Positions 1 through 14,768 of a stretch of DNA of 64,000 bases are shown here, one piece after another (within the stretch, counting starts at the first letter, position 1; each line of letters begins with the position of its first letter). Origin of the DNA: an uncultured delta proteobacterium (GTDB lineage: Bacteria; Myxococcota; Myxococcia; Myxococcales; Myxococcaceae). The stretch is taken from positions 1-64,000 of the forward strand of contig CAVZMH010000006.1 in the NCBI GenBank assembly GCA_963776345.1, given 5' to 3'. The notes under the pieces are model-generated. The model was not told the origin of the DNA and searched no databases. It saw nothing but the letters and a program-made list of their open reading frames with translations. The position numbers and the translations under genes are program-made.

Positions 1-696
1 GCCCGCCGCCACCCGCCCGAGCAGACCCGCATCCACGTCGAGCAGCGAGCGCACCACGGCATGCGCGCTGCCGAACCGCGGGTCCTCCACCGGCCAGCGC
101 TCCGGCACGGCGATGCAGCGCATCCCGGCGCCGGTGGCCGAGAGCACCCCGTTCACCGAGTCCTCCAGCGCCACGCACGCCGCCGGTGCGACGCCGAGCC
201 GCGCCGCGGTGGTGAGGTAGACGCCGGGGTGCGGCTTCCCGAACCGCTCCCCCTCCGCCGACACCACCTGCTCGAACTCGCCCCGCAACCGGAAGCGCTC
301 CAGCACGCCCTCGATCAGCACCAGCGGCGACGACGAGGCCAGCGCCACGCGCAGCCCGGCCCGGCGCACCACCTCCAGGCTCTGGTGCACGCCCGGCTTG
401 AGCGGCGCACGCTCGCCCAGGAGCGCCAGCACCCGGTGCAGGATGCGCCGCACCACCTCGTCCCGCGCAGGCACGGTCCAGGGGTGCCGCGCCGCCCAGT
501 ACGCGACAGCCTCGTCCATCCGGAGCCCGGTCGTCTCCTGGCAGCGCTCCCTGGTGAGCGGCACGCCCAGCGCGCCGAGCACCTCCATCTCGGCCTGCAT
601 CCAGCACGGCTCGGAGTCGATGAGCAGCCCGTCGAGATCGTAGATCACCGCGCGGAGCGCCCCTGCCGCCGAACCTCGGACCGGGCCGGGCGTCAC
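1..696 (-). CDS. HAD-IA family phosphatase (YniC/HxpB-like); 3' end runs off the window
   Basis: Not in the ORF track. Manual translation from GTG 696 (GTGA overlap with the uvrA stop) gives VIYDLDGLLIDSEP (HAD motif I), ALASSS, GKPHPGVY and ALEDSVNG; no stop before position 1. Confidence 0.85.
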   Translation of the reverse strand, partial: MTPGPVRGSAAGALRAVIYDLDGLLIDSEPCWMQAEMEVLGALGVPLTRERCQETTGLRMDEAVAYWAARHPWTVPARDEVVRRILHRVLALLGERAPLKPGVHQSLEVVRRAGLRVALASSSPLVLIEGVLERFRLRGEFEQVVSAEGERFGKPHPGVYLTTAARLGVAPAACVALEDSVNGVLSATGAGMRCIAVPERWPVEDPRFGSAHAVVRSLLDVDAGLLGRVAAG

Positions 697-3578
697 CGGG
701 CGGCGGCCGCCTGTCCCGGAGCCTCGACCGTCCGCGCCGGGCGCGACGTCCGCCCGCGCTCCAGGACCTGACCCAGGTACCGCCCGGTGTGGCTCGCCTC
801 GACGCCGGCCACCTGCTCGGGCGTCCCGGTGGCCAGGACCCGCCCTCCGCCGGCGCCCCCCTCGGGCCCCAGGTCGATGACCCAGTCCGCGCTCTTGATG
901 ACGTCGAGGTTGTGCTCGATCACCACCACCGTGTTGCCCGTCTCCACCAGCCGCTCCAGCACCCGGAGCAGCTTGCGGATGTCGTCGAAGTGAAGCCCGG
1001 TGGTCGGCTCGTCGAGGATGTAGAGCGTCTTCCCCGTCGCCACCCGCGCCAGCTCCCGGCTGAGCTTGATGCGCTGGGCCTCGCCGCCGGACAGCGTGGG
1101 CGAGCTCTGCCCCAGCCGGAGGTAGCCCAGGCCCACGTCCTCCAGCGTCTGGAGCACTCGCACGATGTCCTTGTGCACCGCGAAGTGCTCCTTCGCCTCG
1201 CGGACGCTCATCTCCAGCACCTCGGCGATGTTCTTGCCCTTGTACCGGACCCGCAGCGTGGCGTCGTTGAAGCGCTTGCCGCCGCAGACCTCGCAGGGGA
1301 CGTAGACGTCGGCGAGGAAGTGCATCTCCACCAGCTTGACCCCGTCGCCCTCGCACGACTCGCACCGGCCGCCCTTGACGTTGAAGCTGAAGCGGCTGGC
1401 CTCGTAGCCGAAGGCCCGCGCCTCCTGGGTGAGGGCGAACACCTCGCGGATGGCGTCGAACACCTTGGTGTAGGTCGCGGGATTGCTACGCGGGGTCCGG
1501 CCGATGGGCTTCTGGTCGATGTCGATGACCTTGTCGAGGTGCTCGACCCCCTTGAGCGCCTTGTGCCGCCCGGGCACCACCCGGGCCTCGCTCAGTCGCT
1601 GGGACAGCGCGGGGTAGAGGATCTCGTTCACCAGGGTGGACTTCCCGGCGCCGCTGACGCCGGTCACCGCGACCACCAGCCCCAGCGGGAACTCCACCGT
1701 GACGTTCTGGAGGTTGTTCTCCTTCGCTCCCTCCACCACCAGCTTCGCCGTCCCGGGCGTGCGCCGCCGGCGGGGGACCTCGATCGCCTCGCGACCGCTG
1801 AGGTACGCGCCGGTGAGGCTGTCCGGCGACGCCATCACCTGTGCCGGGGTGCCCTGGGCGACGATGCGGCCGCCGAGCTCGCCCGCGCCCGGACCGAAGT
1901 CGACGATCCAGTCCGCCGAATGCATCGTCTCCTCGTCGTGCTCCACGACGATGACCGAGTTGCCGAGGTCACGCAGCCGCTTCAGCGTCGCCAGCAGCTT
2001 GCCGTTGTCCCGCTGGTGCAGCCCGATGCTCGGCTCGTCCAGGATGTAGACCACCCCGGTGAGCTCGCTCCCCATCTGCGAGGCGAGCCGGATGCGCTGG
2101 CTCTCGCCGCCCGAGAGGGTCGCGGCGCTCCGGTCCAGCGTCAGGTAGCCGAGACCGACGTCGAGCAGGAATCCGAGCCGGCTCTGGATCTCCTTCAGGA
2201 GCTCCCGCGCCACCGGCTCCTCGGCGGCAGTGAGCGGCATCTTCGCCAGGAACTCGCGCGCCTCGGCGATGGTCAGCCGCGACAGCTCGACGATGCTCTT
2301 GCCGTGCACCTTGACCGCCCGCACCTCGGGCTTGAGCCGCTCGCCGTGGCAGGTGGGGCAGGGCTGGGGCGAGAAGAAGCGGGCGTAGTACTTCCGCATC
2401 GCCTCGCTCTGGGTCGTGCGGAAGCTGCGCAGAAGCTTGTGGACCATCCCTTCCCACTCCATGGTCCACTTTCCGCCCGAGCCCCACTTGACGGTGAACT
2501 CCTTGCCGCCGGTCCCGTAGAGCACGACGTCCCGCTCGCGCTTGCTCAGCTTCGACCACGGCACGTCCAGGTCGAGGTCGAACGCCTTCGCCAGCTGCTC
2601 CACGAACTCGGCCGTCCAGCCCTCGCCGCGGACCATCCCGCTGCTCCACGGCTCCACCGCGCCCTCGCGGATGGTGCGCGACGGGTCGGGGACGATGAGG
2701 TCCGGGTCCATCTCCGGCTTGGTCCCGAGCCCGTTGCAGTCCGGGCACATCCCCAGCGGGTTGTTGAAGCTGAAGTGCGCCGCCGTCAGCTCGCCGAACG
2801 ACAGGCCGCAGTGGTGGCAGGCGTTCAGCTCGCTCATCACCCGCGGGTTGCCCCCGGTCTCGTCGGTGAGGAGCAGCACGCCCTTGCCCTCGCGGAGCGC
2901 AGTCTCCACCGAGTCGGTGAGGCGCGACCGGAGGTCGGGCTTGAGGACCAGGCGGTCCACCACCACCTCGATGCTGTGCTTGGCCTTCTTGTCCAGGGTG
3001 ATGGGCTCCTCGAGGCCCCGCACCCGCCCGTCGACCCGCGCCCGGGCGAAGCCCCGCTTCTGCGCGTCGGCCAGCAGCTCGCGGTGCTCTCCCTTCCGCT
3101 CCTGGACCAGGGGAGCGAGGACCATCAGCTTCGTGCCCGCGGGCATCCGGAGGATCTCGTCGACGATCTGCTGGGCCGACTGCCGCCCGACCCGCCGGCC
3201 GCACTTCCAGCAATGCTGCACCCCGATGGAGGCGTAGAGGACGCGGAGGTAGTCGTGGACCTCGGTCACCGTGCCCACGGTGGACCGGGGGTTGTTGCTC
3301 GCCGCCTTCTGCTCGATGGAGATGGTCGGGGACAGCCCCCGGATCGTCTCGTACTTCGGCTTCTCCATCTGCCCGAGGAACTGCCGGGCGTACGCCGACA
3401 GGCTCTCCACGTACCGGCGCTGCCCCTCGGCATAGAGGGTGTCGAAGGCCAGCGAGCTCTTCCCGCTTCCGCTCACCCCGCTGAAGACCACCAGGGCCTT
3501 CTTGGGGATGTCGAGGGAGACGGACTTGAGGTTGTGCTCGGAGGCGCCCCGGATGGAGATGACGTCGGGCTCGGACAT
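693..3578 (-). CDS. uvrA: Excinuclease ABC subunit A
   Basis: Two Walker A motifs (GVSGSGKSS, GVSGAGKST), two LSGGE signatures, CxxC zinc fingers, EGQRRYVESLS. Confidence 0.98.
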   Translation of the reverse strand: MSEPDVISIRGASEHNLKSVSLDIPKKALVVFSGVSGSGKSSLAFDTLYAEGQRRYVESLSAYARQFLGQMEKPKYETIRGLSPTISIEQKAASNNPRSTVGTVTEVHDYLRVLYASIGVQHCWKCGRRVGRQSAQQIVDEILRMPAGTKLMVLAPLVQERKGEHRELLADAQKRGFARARVDGRVRGLEEPITLDKKAKHSIEVVVDRLVLKPDLRSRLTDSVETALREGKGVLLLTDETGGNPRVMSELNACHHCGLSFGELTAAHFSFNNPLGMCPDCNGLGTKPEMDPDLIVPDPSRTIREGAVEPWSSGMVRGEGWTAEFVEQLAKAFDLDLDVPWSKLSKRERDVVLYGTGGKEFTVKWGSGGKWTMEWEGMVHKLLRSFRTTQSEAMRKYYARFFSPQPCPTCHGERLKPEVRAVKVHGKSIVELSRLTIAEAREFLAKMPLTAAEEPVARELLKEIQSRLGFLLDVGLGYLTLDRSAATLSGGESQRIRLASQMGSELTGVVYILDEPSIGLHQRDNGKLLATLKRLRDLGNSVIVVEHDEETMHSADWIVDFGPGAGELGGRIVAQGTPAQVMASPDSLTGAYLSGREAIEVPRRRRTPGTAKLVVEGAKENNLQNVTVEFPLGLVVAVTGVSGAGKSTLVNEILYPALSQRLSEARVVPGRHKALKGVEHLDKVIDIDQKPIGRTPRSNPATYTKVFDAIREVFALTQEARAFGYEASRFSFNVKGGRCESCEGDGVKLVEMHFLADVYVPCEVCGGKRFNDATLRVRYKGKNIAEVLEMSVREAKEHFAVHKDIVRVLQTLEDVGLGYLRLGQSSPTLSGGEAQRIKLSRELARVATGKTLYILDEPTTGLHFDDIRKLLRVLERLVETGNTVVVIEHNLDVIKSADWVIDLGPEGGAGGGRVLATGTPEQVAGVEASHTGRYLGQVLERGRTSRPARTVEAPGQAAAAR

Positions 3579-3625
3579 GCGCAGCCAACCTTGTTAACAC
3601 CGGGCCCGAGCCGAGGGCACGGGCC

Positions 3626-4486
3626 ATGAGCGACACCGCTCTCATCGTGGGGGTGGGTGACATCCACGGGCGTTTCCACCGGGTGCGGACCTGGCTGGAC
3701 GCGCTCGAGCGCACGCTGGACCGCGCCATCGACGCGGTCCTGGCGGTCGGCGACGTGGAGGCCTTCCCGGTGGCCGACGACCACCGGCGCAAGGCGGTGA
3801 AGCGGAGCATGCCCGCCGAGTTCGCCGCCTTCGCCCGCGGCGAGACGCGGATGCCGCGGCCCTTCTACTTCATCGGCGGCAACAACGAGGACTTCGAGAC
3901 CCTCCACGGGCTTCCCCAGGGCGGCGAGGTGGCGCCCGGAGTCCACTATCTGGGCCGGGTCGGCGCGGCGACCATCGCCGGCGTGCGCATCGCCTGGCTG
4001 TCGGGCATCTACGCCCCGAAGTGGCTGGAGGCGCCGCTGCAGGCGCCGACCACCAGCGCGACCCGGAAGCAGGCCGGCTACTTCCGGCTCCCGGAGGTCG
4101 AGCGGCTCCGCTCCGAGCGCGACGTGGACCTCCTCTTGGCCCACGAGTGGCCGCGCGGACTCTTCGCCCGCACTCCCGGCAAGCCCGTTCGCCCGTGGAT
4201 GGGCAACCCGCTCACCCGCTCGGTGGCGGACGAGGTGCGGCCGCAGTGGCTGCTCTGCGGACACTCCCACGAGAGGTTCGCCGCGACACTGCACCACCCC
4301 GGGGACGTACAGACCCGCGTCGCCTGTCTCGACGAGGCGGGAGAGCCGGACGGCGCCGTGCTGTGGATGGAATGGAGCCGCGGCCAGGCCACGCGGGTGG
4401 GGTGGGGAATCGACGGACATGTGTCGTGGACACCCGCCCAGCCGTGGGGCGCTGCGCGAGGTGCCACCGTGCGGCGCGTGCCCTGA
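3626..4486 (+). CDS. Calcineurin-like metallophosphoesterase, Dbr1 (lariat debranching enzyme)-like
   Basis: GDIHG, VGD, FIGGNNE, LAHEWPRG and CGHSH motifs; the intervening segments also match Dbr1 (see findings). Confidence 0.88.
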   Translation: MSDTALIVGVGDIHGRFHRVRTWLDALERTLDRAIDAVLAVGDVEAFPVADDHRRKAVKRSMPAEFAAFARGETRMPRPFYFIGGNNEDFETLHGLPQGGEVAPGVHYLGRVGAATIAGVRIAWLSGIYAPKWLEAPLQAPTTSATRKQAGYFRLPEVERLRSERDVDLLLAHEWPRGLFARTPGKPVRPWMGNPLTRSVADEVRPQWLLCGHSHERFAATLHHPGDVQTRVACLDEAGEPDGAVLWMEWSRGQATRVGWGIDGHVSWTPAQPWGAARGATVRRVP

Positions 4487-4523
4487 ACGCACGCGCGGAT
4501 CGACCTGCTACGCTTCGCCCCGC

Positions 4524-6245
4524 GTGCGCACCTCAACGATGTCTCTCTGCCTGGTGCTCGCCGCGCTCGGGTCTGCATGCTCGGGGAGTACGCCGAACCT
4601 CGGGTCGGCCTCCTGCACTCCGAGCTGCGCGAGCGGGCTCACCTGCGTGGACAACGCCGACTTCCCGGGGGGCGTCTGCACCACCTCCTGCTCCGCCACC
4701 GGCACCTGCCCCTCGGGGAGCGCGTGCGTGCAGATGTCCACCGGCCAGTTCTGCGCGCCCTCCTGCGCCTCCGGGGACGGCTGTCCCACGGGCCTGGTGT
4801 GCGGCACTGCCGGCAGCGCGGGCAAGGTCTGCCTCGCCCCGGCGGCCGCGCCGGCCACGGCGGTCAGCTGCCCGAACGCCCCGGCGGTGAACAGCGGCGG
4901 GACCATCGCCGCCGCCGAGACCGCGGGCTGCGTGCAGCCCATCGTCCAGAGCACCTACGCCCCGGCCCCGCCGGCCGTCGGCGCGACGCTGGCGCTCGGC
5001 GTGCACCAGGTGGGGGAGAAGGTGCAGTTCCAGCTCCCGGCCGGGACCAGCGGATTCACCGTGGTGTCGCAGGGACAGTCGACCAACGTCTCGAAGGTGA
5101 GCGTCTTCGGAGGCGTGCTGCCGAACTCGCCGCTGCCGACGCCCATCGACGAGCCGAACGGGACCTTCTTCAACTACCCGAACTCCTTCGGGCAGGCCCC
5201 GTCCGACCGGGCGCTGACCTGGTCGCCCATCTCGCCGGTCACCGCGGCGGTGACCTTCCCCAACGGCACCGCGGGGCTGCTCAAGGCGGCGCAGGGGCTC
5301 ACCCCGGGGACGTGGAGCCTGACCGTCAGCGACCTCCTGCACGAGTGCGGGGCGCTCGCCTGCGGTGACCCCGCGTCGGGCTCCACCGCCAACCACTACG
5401 ACGTGACGGTCCTCACCCGCTCCGGCGGCATCCCGGCGCGCGGCGGGCTCGACCTCGCCATCTATCTGGTGTCCGGCAGCATCTCCGCGGCGACCGCCCC
5501 GGACGATCCCGACCTCCGGCGGATGGTCCAGCGGGTGACGGCAGACTTCGCGCGGGCCGGCGTCTGCCTGCAGACGGTGACCTACTACGACGTCCCCGCC
5601 TGGGCCCGGACCCGCTGGGCCGTGGTGCCGGTGAGCGCGGGCATCGCCGCCGAGCCGTGCAGCGAGTACCGCCAGCTCCTCACCCTCGCCCGGCCAGGCA
5701 ACGTGGTGAGCCTGTTCCTGGTCGATCAGATCACCGAGCCCAACGCCCCGCCCGGGACGAGGCTCGTCGGCTACGACGGCGCCATCCCGGGCGTGTCCAC
5801 CTTCAGCGGGACGACGGCGGGCGGAGCGATCGTCTCCGCGGCAGACGTCCACAGCACCGCCGGGTGCGGGACCAGCTTCAGCGTGTCCTGCGGCCCGGAC
5901 GTGGTCGGGGAGACGGTGGCGCACGAGGCCGCCCACGCGCTGGGGCTCTTCCACACCACCGAGAGCCAGGGCGCCTCGGGCGAGGACTTCGACCCGCTGA
6001 ACGACACGCCCCAGTGCCTGTGCTCCCTCTGCGTGAGTGCGTCCGACCGCGCGAGCTGCGCCGATCAGCCGAACGCGCCCGCGCAGCCCACCCTGGTGGA
6101 CGGCTCGAACTGCGCCCAGGGAACGCAGCCCTGCGGCGGGGCGGACTACCTCATGTTCTGGCAGCTCACGGACCTGTCGCGCGGGAACCTCTCGCCGCAG
6201 GAGGGCCAGGTGATGCGGATGAACCCGCTGGTGCGTCCGCTGTGA
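4524..6245 (+). CDS. Cys-rich lipoprotein with C-terminal metzincin metalloprotease domain (M43/pappalysin-like)
   Basis: Lipobox-like LGSAC after GTG 4524 or ATG 4539; N-terminal Cys repeats; HEAAHALGLFH zinc motif at about 5922-5954; candidate Met-turn YLMFW. Confidence 0.75.
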   Translation: MRTSTMSLCLVLAALGSACSGSTPNLGSASCTPSCASGLTCVDNADFPGGVCTTSCSATGTCPSGSACVQMSTGQFCAPSCASGDGCPTGLVCGTAGSAGKVCLAPAAAPATAVSCPNAPAVNSGGTIAAAETAGCVQPIVQSTYAPAPPAVGATLALGVHQVGEKVQFQLPAGTSGFTVVSQGQSTNVSKVSVFGGVLPNSPLPTPIDEPNGTFFNYPNSFGQAPSDRALTWSPISPVTAAVTFPNGTAGLLKAAQGLTPGTWSLTVSDLLHECGALACGDPASGSTANHYDVTVLTRSGGIPARGGLDLAIYLVSGSISAATAPDDPDLRRMVQRVTADFARAGVCLQTVTYYDVPAWARTRWAVVPVSAGIAAEPCSEYRQLLTLARPGNVVSLFLVDQITEPNAPPGTRLVGYDGAIPGVSTFSGTTAGGAIVSAADVHSTAGCGTSFSVSCGPDVVGETVAHEAAHALGLFHTTESQGASGEDFDPLNDTPQCLCSLCVSASDRASCADQPNAPAQPTLVDGSNCAQGTQPCGGADYLMFWQLTDLSRGNLSPQEGQVMRMNPLVRPL

Positions 6246-6805
6246 GCGCGCGGTCGACACCGCTGGCGCTGGCGGCGGCGCTGGTCCTGTGCGCATCGGT
6301 GCGCGGCGCGCCGGCCGAGCCCGAGGTCCGGGCCCGGGTGGAAGGGCTCCTCGGGGCCTACCGGGCGGTGACCGTCGCCGAGTGGCGGGCGGTCGGCCCC
6401 GACGCGGCGCCGGTGCTGGAGGCGGTGGCCCGCGATGCGGCCGCGCTGCCGACCTGGCGGGCGCGGGCGCTGGCGGCGCTCGGGGTCGTCCGGCCTGCCG
6501 CGGCCGCCCCGCTGGTCCGGCAGCTGGCGGCGGACGTCGGCGCCCCTCCTCTCGTTCGCTCGGCGGCGGTCGACGCCGCGCCGGGAGTGCTGGGAGCGGA
6601 CGCGGTGGCGTTCCTCACCCCGTTCCTCCGTGACGCGGACTCCGTCGTCCGCCAGAGGTCGGCCGAGGCGCTGGCCCTGTCCGGCCCCGCCGGTTGCCGG
6701 GCGGTGCTGGCCGAGGCGAAGGCGCATCCGCCGTCGGGCGCGCTGGCCAGGACTGCGGCGAGCTGTGCCGAGCAGCTCCGCACCGGCGCGCCGCCCGAGC
6801 GCTGA
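6242..6805 (+). CDS. Exported HEAT-repeat-like protein
   Basis: GTG overlaps the upstream TGA; signal peptide LALAAALVLCASVRGA; HEAT-like repeats RARALAALG, VRSAAVDA, LRDADSVVRQRSAEALAL. Confidence 0.65.
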   Translation: MSARSTPLALAAALVLCASVRGAPAEPEVRARVEGLLGAYRAVTVAEWRAVGPDAAPVLEAVARDAAALPTWRARALAALGVVRPAAAAPLVRQLAADVGAPPLVRSAAVDAAPGVLGADAVAFLTPFLRDADSVVRQRSAEALALSGPAGCRAVLAEAKAHPPSGALARTAASCAEQLRTGAPPER

Positions 6806-6919
6806 GCGCCGACGCGAGCGGTCGCTCGCTGGATCGCGAGGGCACCTCGGGAGGGCGCGCCGTCATCGGAGGAGCGGCCGGGTGGTGTCATCGCCCGGGC
6901 GTAGGGTGGCCGGTCCACC

Positions 6920-9900
6920 ATGGAAGCCCTGGGCCACGAGGAGGGCTGGACGCCCGAGCGGCTGCGGGATGCAGTCGTGCCTCCGTCCGGACTGAGGACG
7001 TGCAGCGGCGCCGCCCTGCAGGGGTTGCTCCTGGCGGCCGTGGACTCGGTCGGCCCGGGCCCGTTCGGCGCCGTCGCGCGGAGCCCCGCCTTCCTCCGGG
7101 GCCTCGAGGCGCTCCTCGACGAGCTGGCGCTGGGCGGCGTTTCCGCTGCGACGCTCGCCGAGGCGGCGGAGCGCATGGGCCCGCCCGGGGCCCGGCTCGC
7201 GCATCTCGCACAGGTGGTCGAGGCGTGCGGGGCCCGGATGGCCACCGCCCGCGTCGAGCTCGCCTCGGCACGCTGGGCCGCGGCGAGCGGCCTCCTGGCC
7301 CGCGGCTGGCCCTCGGAGCTCGGGGTCGACCCGCTGACGCTGATGCTCACCCCTCCCTTCGCCCCCGGCGTGGTGGGCTTCCTGGCCTCGCTGGCCCGGG
7401 CCGCCTCGGACTCCGGCCGCACGCTCGCGCTCCGGGTGCCGCTCGCCGGAGACGCCGGGCTCGACGCCGCGCTCGAGCCGCTGCTCCAGGCGTTCGAGGC
7501 CGGCCCGGACCTGCCAGGGGTGGAGCTGCTCCCGGAGCTTCCGGAGGGTCCGCTGTCCGGGCCCGTGCGGCACATGGCCGTCGCCGCGCCCGGCAGCGTC
7601 GCCACGGACGCGCTCCAGGCGGTGGTCGCTCCCGGCGCCCGGCGCGAGGCGGCTGCGCTGGTGGATGCGCTCCGCCGCGCGATCGAGGCCGGTGCTCCGC
7701 CCGACCGCTGCGCGCTGGCGGTGCTCGTGCCCCAGGACGCCCCCGAGCTCCTGAAGGCGCTGGAGGACGCAGGCCTTCCCTGCGGTCGCCGCCCCCCGGT
7801 CCCGCTGGGCAGCACCGTGGCGGGGAGGGTGGGGCTGGTCTGGGCGGGGCTCGCCGCCCGTCGCGCGCCCGCCGAGGATCTGGCGTGGCTCCTCCGCCAG
7901 CGGCTCCTGCCCGGCCTCCGACTCGACGGCCGGCTGGACCCGCTCCCGCTCCTGCGCCGCGCGGGCGTGCGGGATGCGTCGCTCGGCGCCGAGGGCCCGG
8001 CCAGCGCCTACCAGGTCCGGCTCTCGGCGTTCGCCGCGCGGAGGCGCGCCGCGGGTGAGCCACGCGACGCCGAGTCGGCGGAGCGGGTCCTGGAGGCGAC
8101 GCACGCGCTGCTCGGCCTGGCCGGGCGCATCCCCCGCCGGGGCCGGCTGTCCGAGCTGCTCGAGGCGTGGCGCGCCGGACTCGAGGCTGGAGGCTTCTGG
8201 ACGGCGCTCGAGCGCGAGCCTCTCGAGGCCGACCCGCCGGCGCGCCGGGCCACCGCCCGCGAGGCGGCGGCGGTGGAGGCGTGGCGGGCCTTCGTCCGCG
8301 ACACGCGCGCCGGCTGGAAGGCCGCCGGCACCCGGGGTCCGGAGATGGACCGCGCCGGGTTCGCGCGCTGGCTCGCCGATGCGGCCGCGAGCCTCCCGGT
8401 CGGCTCCGGCCCCGGGGTGCCGGGCGGAGTCGACGTGCTCCCCCTCGAGTCGCTGGGGGCCAGGCGCCTGGCCTTCCTGGGCGTGGCGGGCCTCGACGTG
8501 ACCAGCTTCCCCCGGCGCGCGGAGCCGCCGCTGCTCGGGGACGAGGAGCGGCAGGCCGTCCACGGCGTTCTCGGGCGAGTCGCGCTCCCCTCGCTGGTGG
8601 GGAGTGGAGACGCGCGGAGCGCGGTCGACGAGGCGGTGGACCGCTGGCGGCTGGGCCGGGCCATCGCCTCGTCGGAGCGGGTCGTGCTGGCGCGGCGCCG
8701 GTCTGCGGGCGGCGCCCCGGCGGACGTGGTGCAGCGGCTGCTCGCGGTGACCGGCGCCGTGGAGAGAGACCTCTCGGGCGAGCTGGTTCCGTGGCTCGAG
8801 GAGGCGCCGGGACCGGCCTGGGCGCGCATGCGGCTCGGGCTCGAGGCCTCCGTCGCTCCGGACCTCCGGAGCAGCCCGCTCGATCCGGTCGGCGCGGCCG
8901 CGCTCGACGCGGTCGCCGGTGCGCCGTGGCTCGGGGAGGCGTTGGCGCTCGCGGGCGTGGAGTCCGAGCGCCTCCGGGTCGGCGCGGGTCTCCTGGCGCC
9001 CGGCCCGCACAGCGGGCGGCTCGGCCCGGCGACCGACGTCGTCGCGGCCGTCGAGGCCAGGCTGGGAGGCGCCCCGGAGGGCCCCCTCTCCTCGACCAGC
9101 CTGACGGCGCTCGCCAACTGCCCCTTCCAGGGCCTGTCGCGGAAGGTGCTCGGCCTCGAGCCCCCGGAGGACGGCGCGGAGGAGCTCGACGCCCGGGGCC
9201 GGGGGCAGTTCCTCCACCAGGCGCTGGAGCAGCTGGTGAAGCGGCTGCTCCAGCTCGGGCTCGCCGAGGCGGACCCGGCCACGCTCCCGGAGGACCTGGT
9301 CCCGGCTGCGGTGGAGGCCGCGGCGCGTGAGCACGCCCGCCGCGCGCCCACCGGCCACCCGCGTCTGTGGGCGCTGGCGCAGGCCCGCGCCCGGCGGACG
9401 CTGGAGCGGCTGCTCCGCTCCGGGAAGCTCTACCCCTTCCCGGGCCTCCGGCCTGCCGCGGCCGAGGAACGCTTCGGGCCGGGCCTCGAGCTGCCGGCGG
9501 CGCTGCCCGGCGAGCGCCCGATCTACTTCCGGGGGACGCTCGATCGCGTCGACCGTGGCGACGCCGGGACGGGCGTCCTCGATTACAAGAGCAGCAAGCG
9601 CCGCGAGCGCGCCCGGGCGGAGGTCCTGGTCACCGACTTCCAGCTCCCGCTCTACCTGCTCGCGCTCCGGGCCCGCGGCGAGCGCCCGCCGTTCCAGGCC
9701 GGATGGTTGTCGCTGAAGACGATGGAGTTCCTCCCGCTGGATCCAGACCGCACCGGTCCGCTGGAGACCTTCCTCGCCACGGACGCCGCGACGCGCACCT
9801 CGGCCAGCAGCCCGAACCTCGCGACCGCGGTGCACGCGCTGCTCGCCGAGCCGCGCCAGGGGCTGTTCCCCGTCCGCCCGCGCGAGTGCGGCTTCTGTCC

Positions 9901-9954
9901 GCTCGGCTCGGTGTGCCGCATCTCCGAGCGGCGGGCGCCGCAGGGGGGAGAGGG

Positions 9955-9958
<4 letters not shown>
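6920..9958 (+). CDS. addB: AddB/RexB-like subunit with C-terminal PD-(D/E)XK nuclease
   Basis: RGTLDRVD...VLDYKS, FQLPLY, Fe-S staple cysteines (NCPF; CGFCPLGSVC); ATGA-coupled to the helicase gene. Confidence 0.8.

Positions 9959-14768
<4,810 letters not shown>

Follow-up and report, generated by a model that had tools for sequence, protein, structure and literature searches.

The question raised by this locus is whether a bacterium can carry a relative of Dbr1, the enzyme which debranches lariats, and, if so, what such a protein would do there. Dbr1 is described in the literature as the only known enzyme cutting the 2'-5' bond of lariats, and is treated as eukaryotic. The locus lies in a 64,000-nucleotide stretch of DNA from an uncultured delta proteobacterium of the Myxococcaceae (assembly GCA_963776345.1, contig CAVZMH010000006.1, positions 1 to 64,000; hereafter the window), and the gene in question (P0001; 3626..4486 on the plus strand, the end coordinate including the stop codon) encodes a predicted metallophosphoesterase of 286 amino acids. 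An initial annotation of this DNA had proposed that the product is a bacterial Dbr1 homologue, and this was upheld, as Dbr1 was found to be the nearest relative of the protein among solved metallophosphoesterases, both by sequence search of the Protein Data Bank (PDB) and by the fold of its model. The same annotation had suggested that it acts on 2'-5' linkages, which the evidence given below does not favor.

A phmmer search against all PDB sequences returned seven distinct sequences and no others, namely five Entamoeba Dbr1 variants (E-values of 4.2e-18 to 2.9e-17, over query residues 8-220) and two of CWF19L1 (1.2e-6 and 2.1e-4). An AlphaFold2 model built from a 71-row alignment (mean predicted local distance difference test score, pLDDT, of 93.4; predicted template modelling score, pTM, of 0.92) was aligned against 48,161 PDB representatives without the Foldseek prefilter. 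Dbr1 ranked first (4pef_A; 29.0 / 2.0 / 244), the match spanning model residues 3-253 with 244 of the 251 residues superposing. CWF19L1 was second (21.9 / 3.0 / 223), the first generic metallophosphoesterase, aq_1956, was third (17.9 / 3.4 / 213), and Mre11/SbcD appeared at rank 10 and below (12.7-14.1 / 3.9-4.5 / 202-213). The likeness to Dbr1 is far above chance and the protein is a genuine relative of the Dbr1 catalytic domain. The eukaryotic Dbr1 is the closest known system, with four structures from Entamoeba histolytica (4pef, 4peh, 5k71, and 5k77) and biochemistry on the yeast enzyme.

At the level of individual segments, a library Dbr1 with the C-terminal domain (P0215) shares 31% identity with the window protein over 231 amino acids (BLASTP, E 4e-30) and contains the strings FIGGNHEA, LPYGGWVAPNIYYLG, GVRIAGLSGIY, SHDWPRG, AHLHCKFAA, and TKFLALDK. 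The segments of the window protein on which the initial annotation had relied (GDIHG, FIGGNNE, LPQGGEVAPGVHYLG, GVRIAWLSGIY, DLLLAHEWPRG, GHSHERFAATLHH, and TRVACLDE) are all present, and the human Dbr1 strings to which it had matched them have near-identical counterparts in P0215. The lariat recognition loop of Dbr1 is given as residues 130-158 with an invariant Arg158, and is described there as absent from other metallophosphoesterases (Montemayor et al., 2014; PMC4176325). As judged from the aligned sequences, the window protein appears to share with Dbr1 not only the fold of the catalytic domain but also an insert of this size after the SGIY strand (residues 129-157; 4010..4096, plus strand), which is of similar length, with gaps of only 2-3 residues relative to the Dbr1 loop, a near-invariant Pro141 and an invariant Arg154. 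This arginine is aligned with the conserved loop Arg of Dbr1 by BLASTP and MAFFT, with HMMER shifting it by 3 residues. Thus neither a better match to another metallophosphoesterase family nor a missing recognition loop was found, with Dbr1 ranking first and a loop-sized insert being present.

The motifs of the calcineurin-like superfamily (DxH, GD, GNH(D/E), H, and GHxH) are all present except for the histidine of motif III, and all seven metal ligands (D12, H14, D43, N86, H173, H213, and H215) are retained. On the plus strand, motif I (GDIHG, residues 11-15; 3656..3670) supplies Asp12 and His14, and has Asp where Dbr1 has Cys (GCxHG, with GC.HG in all 37 library proteins with PF05011, the DBR1 C-terminal domain). 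Motif II (Gly42-Asp43; 3749..3754) contains the bridging metal ligand and is invariant in three alignments. In motif III (GNNE, residues 85-88; 3878..3889), Asn86 is a metal ligand and Asn87, translated from the codon AAC at 3884-3886, replaces the general-acid His of GNHE (yeast His86, Entamoeba His91). Motif IV (HEWPRG, residues 173-178; 4142..4159) provides His173, followed by Glu174 where Dbr1 and most bacterial relatives have Asp, and motif V (GHSH, residues 212-215; 4259..4270) provides His213 and His215. The replacements of the Dbr1 Cys by Asp and of the catalytic His by Asn, both pointed out previously, are therefore real and are also conserved.

Where Dbr1 carries its C-terminal domain, the window protein has only a short tryptophan-rich tail of 28 residues (254-281; 4385..4468, plus strand), which is specific to the subclade of proteins with GNNE in motif III (the GNNE subclade) and is not the Dbr1 domain. 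No match to PF05011 was found at E up to 1, and the protein ends 26 residues past its last strand. The tail has six invariant residues (G259 W260 G261 G264 W268 W274) and is modelled confidently, with pLDDT block means of 98, 98, and 88. Pfam recognizes only the generic Metallophos domain (PF00149, 1.4e-11, 45.6 bits against a cut-off of 21.5) and no CwfJ domain, and no NCBIfam family was matched. The only PADLOC match was a weak one to PDC-S10 (9.7e-4), and the only PHROGs match was to a generic phage metallophosphoesterase (phrog_1649, 2.6e-10). The other relative, Drn1/CWF19L1, retains almost none of its catalytic residues and carries CwfJ domains (PMC4105757), whereas in the window protein every metal ligand is kept and a CwfJ domain is absent.

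The substitution in motif III is not a peculiarity of one sequence. GGNNE, including Asn87, was found in 18 of 18 aligned orthologues from Myxococcaceae, and the seven metal ligands, Glu174, R55 K56 K59 R60, K148-R154, and the Trp-rich tail are likewise invariant among them. The ratio of nonsynonymous to synonymous substitution rates (dN/dS) is 0.14-0.19 against seven congeners, and the gene is under purifying selection. Taken together, the invariant residues and the low dN/dS show that the proteins of the GNNE subclade are functional and constrained and are not decaying. The open reading frame (ORF) itself is stop-free and has G+C contents of 0.735/0.537/0.920 at codon positions 1/2/3. This is as expected in a genome of 73% G+C (72.9% in the window) and identifies it as a real gene; the frames overlapping it lack the codon-position pattern of real genes. 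A GAGGG Shine-Dalgarno-like element lies 11-15 nucleotides 5' of the ATG, and both are kept in 9/9 loci of the genus. In RNA libraries, a few low-depth contigs extend from the start of the neighboring uvrA across the intergenic region into the first 80-140 bases of the gene; no metatranscriptome contig was found over 3962-4701, which indicates neither expression nor silence of the phosphoesterase gene.

What the loss of the motif III histidine means for catalysis can be approached through the yeast enzyme. His86 of yeast Dbr1 is reported to be essential for debranching and is given the role of general acid toward the O2' leaving group (Schwer, Khalid and Shuman, 2016; PMC5113202). According to the same source, strains carrying H86A, H86N, or H86Q have the phenotype of dbr1-delta, and H86N retains 42% of the activity on bis-p-nitrophenylphosphate. 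By analogy, the wild-type sequence of the GNNE subclade would be the very substitution that kills debranching in yeast but spares activated-ester chemistry. The window protein may well be, although we say so with some reserve, a cytosolic two-metal phosphoesterase whose substrate is a phosphoester or phosphoanhydride carrying a good leaving group and not a 2'-5' branch in RNA. The binuclear center would still activate water and bind phosphate, so that chemistry would be retained, and with nothing to protonate a ribose O2' or O3' as it leaves, turnover would probably be limited to activated substrates. Candidate substrates would include nucleotide pyrophosphates, adenylylated or triphosphorylated nucleic-acid ends, and aryl-type esters. 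A polyanionic substrate, for example a nucleotide or a nucleic acid, is suggested by the numerous invariant arginines and lysines near the loops (R16, R19, R55, K56, K59, R60, K148, R154, R177, and R189).

It had been proposed instead that the protein is a true 2'-5' phosphodiesterase acting on multicopy single-stranded DNA (msDNA), on lariats of group II introns or on 2'-5' nucleotide signals, in which case another residue or the substrate itself would have to serve as proton donor. Dbr1 is indeed the closest relative by sequence and fold (in a careful 47-row tree the subclade is even sister to eukaryotic Dbr1, with support of 88/85), and the loop and its Arg are present. On the other hand, H86N is reported as null for debranching in yeast (PMC5113202), the C-terminal domain of Dbr1 is absent, and in Myxococcus and Corallococcus a second, His-bearing paralogue would be the better candidate for such a role.

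The distribution of reverse transcriptases bears on the same proposal. No match to the Pfam family RVT_1 was found in the window's own genome (98.4% complete, 24 contigs). A hand-picked sample of 68 genomes was also searched, consisting of 8 congeners, 7 genomes of a second genus (g6), 33 other orthologue-bearing genomes (mostly of few contigs) and 20 genomes of the family which lack the orthologue. RVT_1 was matched in 32 of the 48 orthologue-bearing genomes, which speaks for the proposal, and in 11 of the 20 without an orthologue, which does not; it was not matched in the remaining 16 of 48, among them 8/8 congeners, 3/7 genomes of g6 and the single-contig genome G203. In these counts kin are not independent and draft assemblies may miss mobile elements, although RVT_1 was equally unfound in assemblies of 7 (G080), 9 (G070), and 1 (G203) contigs. 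The phosphoesterase gene clearly persists where a reverse transcriptase is undetectable, and the protein differs from the eukaryotic Dbr1 in being bacterial, restricted to the Myxococcaceae and encoded in many genomes without this enzyme. As none was detected in the window's genome or in any of its eight congeners, neither msDNA nor group II lariats are likely to be the substrate. It is unlikely that the GNNE subclade debranches msDNA or lariats, and the main proposal of a 2'-5' phosphodiesterase is not supported in view of the H86N-type change, the missing C-terminal domain and the RVT_1 results; we consider it very improbable. Within the family, the window's own small-genome genus (about 5 Mb) had RVT_1 in 0/9 genomes, while large-genome genera had up to 13 matches.

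The principal alternative to hydrolysis of an activated ester or anhydride is that nothing is cleaved at all. The protein would then be a metal-dependent binder, a natural substrate trap holding branched, kinked or end-modified nucleic acid in its Dbr1-like pocket and loop, and either sequestering it or marking it for another factor. Dbr1-H86A is reported to bind branched RNA with a dissociation constant (Kd) of 53 nM in a Mn-dependent manner while being catalytically dead (PMC5113202), and the paralogue Drn1/CWF19L1 illustrates that non-catalytic roles are possible for Dbr1-like domains (PMC4105757). A binder would also be consistent with the insert of lariat-recognition-loop size with its conserved Arg and with the many invariant basic residues. 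However, Drn1 has given up nearly all of its catalytic residues while all seven metal ligands are retained across the GNNE subclade, there is no conserved partner gene alongside, and the Dbr1 C-terminal domain, which is described as buttressing the lariat recognition loop (PMC4176325), is absent. This reading is therefore regarded as possible but rather unlikely.

Several points nevertheless weigh against the phosphoesterase that we favor. The retained metal ligands would be needed equally by a metal-dependent binder that does not cleave, a different residue could act as general acid, and the loop Arg together with the Dbr1-like fold may argue that some branched or kinked nucleic acid is still recognized. 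A second change is Glu174, which replaces an Asp of importance in yeast Dbr1; the absence of RVT_1 from draft genomes can reflect unassembled mobile elements; and no genomic neighbor indicates a substrate. Whichever holds, the GNNE subclade is a natural H86N mutant under selection in over a hundred genomes, and poses the question of whether a debranching-type pocket has been reused for other chemistry or for binding alone.

The window protein belongs to an uncharacterized bacterial family of short Dbr1-like proteins without the Dbr1 C-terminal domain, present in Myxococcota, Cyanobacteria, Acidobacteriota, and Abditibacteriota. A word-indexed search turned up 332 relatives of comparable length; identity to the window protein is 55-99% for the best 120 of them. 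Among these 120, NCBI names are metallophosphoesterase (once serine/threonine protein phosphatase), from Myxococcaceae, Corallococcus, Myxococcus, and Hyalangium, and JGI names are "Icc-related predicted phosphoesterase", "predicted phosphodiesterase", "hypothetical protein", and "lariat debranching enzyme". Through the JGI names, automatic annotation already records the likeness to Dbr1. The name lariat debranching enzyme, current in some pipelines, is inappropriate for the window gene. Full-text searches found no literature on bacterial Dbr1-like proteins, with subscription journals and supplements lying outside the search, and the words debranching, CWF19, and metallophosph are all absent from the main text of an article on the origin of the spliceosome (PMC9887622).

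An exhaustive search of 1.84 billion representatives gave 1343 matches at E up to 1e-3, 27 of them at 1e-30 or better. From the best 150 of these 1343, 130 were scanned against Pfam, leaving out 20 fragments of 239 amino acids or less. PF05011 was present in 37 of the 130, and such proteins start at an E-value of about 1e-24; the matches scoring above them, orthologues aside, are mostly of 230-300 amino acids with the Metallophos domain only. A census of motifs separates three groups. The orthologue group (44% identity or more) has GDIHG, GGNNED, and GHSH in motifs I, III, and V, and the short bacterial group has GDVHG, FIGGNHEP, and GHMH. The proteins with the Dbr1 C-terminal domain have GC.HG and GGNHEA, motif V being unscored as the GH.H pattern matched only some of them. 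Exceptions are few (P0218 with GNNE, P0142 with GNRE), and all library representatives at 44% identity or more that span motif III have GNNE, compared with GNHE in the wider short family.

Members of this wider family (GDVHG/FIGGNHEP/GHMH), which JGI calls "lariat debranching enzyme" or "predicted phosphodiesterase", show 30-38% identity with the window protein and provide its best non-orthologous matches (E 3e-35 and weaker). They share with it a length of about 230-300 amino acids, the absence of the C-terminal domain, the Asp of motif I and a Dbr1-type loop insert, but differ in having the general-acid His of GNHE, mostly HDWP in motif IV, no Trp-rich tail, a spread over many phyla and frequent tandem pairs. 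A family with the Dbr1 fold and loop but without the C-terminal domain offers an experimental handle on how branch recognition arose, and also probes the role of such a pocket in cells without spliceosomes. The His-type relatives were collected by scanning one genome per species with a pattern from a 25-row alignment of His-bearing relatives (target FI[GA]GNHEP), by which GNNE orthologues are not retrievable. The scan gave 151 confirmed relatives, of which 80 were kept. Their hosts include Myxococcus, Corallococcus, Pyxidicoccus, Archangium, Sorangium, and Polyangium among the Myxococcota, as well as many Cyanobacteria (Trichodesmium, Prochloron, Dapis, Symploca), Abditibacteriota, Acidobacteriota, Geobacter, and others. 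Tandem paralogue pairs are common among the His-bearing genes (L006:1646-3532, L002:5689-7874, L013:5977-7847, and L061 with L062 at about 4879-6843), for example a pair of 276 and 349 amino acids in Myxococcus xanthus, and Abditibacterium loci have two or three His-bearing copies within a few kb.

The GNNE subclade, by comparison, is restricted to the Myxococcaceae. When 401 evenly drawn genomes of Myxococcota were queried with the window protein, matches at E up to 1e-10 were found in 113 of the 171 genomes of the window's own family, a tally which includes one distant match (G364, 1e-17) and one genome flagged as unpublished (G195). Outside the family, a single match was of orthologue grade (49% identity) and came from a different family of the same order, and in the rest of the phylum six genomes gave matches, all of them weak (1e-13 to 1e-19). 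A second copy, of the His-bearing type and at 31-38% identity, is present in at least 35 genomes of the family, Myxococcus and Corallococcus included; the window's own genome has the GNNE copy alone.

The relationship of these bacterial proteins to Dbr1 was followed in two trees, a quick one of 107 rows and the careful one of 47 rows. Both set a Dbr1-like clade apart from metallophosphoesterases of the window's own genome (a Shimodaira-Hasegawa-like approximate likelihood ratio test, SH-aLRT, value of 98 against six of them in the larger tree; 100/98 against three in the smaller). Both also recover a Dbr1 clade with the C-terminal domain (99 and 100/99, respectively), and the window protein falls outside it in each. 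The GNNE subclade is supported at 100, its stem being long (about 1 change per site). Its placement differs between the two, as in the 107-row tree it groups with two His-bearing sequences of unknown origin (96) within a bacterial clade (94), and in the 47-row tree two long stems meet where it joins eukaryotic Dbr1. An approximately unbiased (AU) test on the 47-row subset did not reject a grouping of all bacterial rows (delta lnL 2.49, p 0.42). Simple similarity places the short bacterial proteins (best E 3e-35) ahead of Dbr1 (1.4e-24) as matches to the window protein.

It is conceivable, though we think it improbable, that the GNNE subclade, as opposed to the wider bacterial family, is the closest living bacterial sister of Dbr1 and that the catalytic domain entered the eukaryotic stem from a myxobacterium-like lineage. 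A branch-recognizing pocket older than Dbr1 itself (the loop, the loop Arg, FAA...H, and T(R/K)xxxLD) would then have become a sensor of unusual nucleic-acid linkages, non-cleaving or with altered chemistry. Three library proteins, P0164 (801 amino acids), P0136, and P0149, combine the Asp of motif I with CI(G/S)GNHES in motif III. The eukaryotic Dbr1 clade has P0164 branching at its base, and P0136 and P0149 join the GNNE subclade in the 107-row tree and not in the 47-row tree; all three might be intermediate forms relevant to how Dbr1 originated. When P0136 was used as a query in five Myxococcota genomes, no match was found at 1e-10.

The position of the gene provides the remaining line of evidence. 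As noted previously, it is divergent from uvrA (693..3578, minus strand; 961 amino acids; Pfam UvrA_inter 4.8e-40, UvrA_DNA-bind 3.5e-30), with a 47-bp gap between them. Downstream, on the plus strand, lie an AddB-like gene for a PD-(D/E)XK nuclease (6920..9958; PF12705, 2.1e-32) and an AddA/UvrD-like helicase gene (9367..13431; PF00580, 1.7e-42), the latter coordinates being those of the listed ORF, with the true start probably near the end of the AddB-like gene. A location between uvrA and addAB suggests a DNA-repair nuclease or end-processing phosphoesterase of the Mre11/SbcD or metallophosphoesterase type. Synteny with uvrA was seen in part: the two genes are immediate divergent neighbors in 9/9 loci of the genus, 47-48 bp apart, and in 6/7 loci of g6, 80-115 bp apart (701 bp in the seventh), and this arrangement was not seen in 14/14 loci of two other genera within flanks of 1.5 kb. 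With 8-kb flanks in 12 further genomes and the window, uvrA was found within about 5 kb in 10 of 13 loci, and AddB-like and AddA-like genes follow in several of them. Neighbor counts are approximate, since the gene picker, based on G+C at third codon positions, missed both the phosphoesterase and the AddB-like gene in the window.

Against a role in repair, the large genomes have unrelated genes toward uvrA or addB (by eye, an EamA-like transporter, a large secreted protein, and a PAP2-like protein), the transporter-like gene and one for a secreted protein of roughly 1000 amino acids lying between uvrA and the phosphoesterase gene and co-directional with the latter. These loci all come from one bacterial family, so that their gene order is not independent evidence, and Myxococcaceae neighbors are, by eye, membrane or secreted proteins with no clear link. 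In the 80 His-bearing loci from many phyla no neighbor is shared, for repair or otherwise, the sole cross-phylum cluster besides the gene being its own antisense shadow ORF. The fold is also much nearer to Dbr1 than to Mre11, and the absent general acid disfavors ordinary cleavage of DNA diesters. A scan for promoters and terminators gave no sigma-70 consensus and no terminator, and no LexA-type site was recognized. The adjacency to uvrA is a conserved neighborhood within one family and not an operon or evidence of shared function, and a repair nuclease is accordingly considered a doubtful explanation, with activated-ester hydrolysis still preferred.

The 47-bp intergenic region (3579..3625) holds the GAGGG ribosome-binding-like element and a palindrome-like core, TTGTTAACA, and is nearly identical in 9/9 loci of the genus (the window and L082-L089), even though synonymous divergence (dS) in the coding sequence is about 0.55. 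A related ATAACA element is found near the uvrA start in genus g6. The insertions at L111-L118 comprise the EamA-like transporter and a secreted protein with a DNSGSM motif, which by eye resembles a von Willebrand factor type A (vWA) or metal ion-dependent adhesion site (MIDAS). Immediately downstream of the phosphoesterase gene is one for a predicted secreted or lipoprotein-like protein (4539..6245, plus strand), without a Pfam match, whose listed ORF starts at 4419 (608 amino acids) and whose actual start was placed by eye near 4539 from the signal-peptide-like MSLCLVLAALGSAC. Its product is Cys-rich, with a lipoprotein-like signal and a zinc metalloprotease-like motif (HEAAHALGLFH, by eye), and the gene is kept in congener L120.

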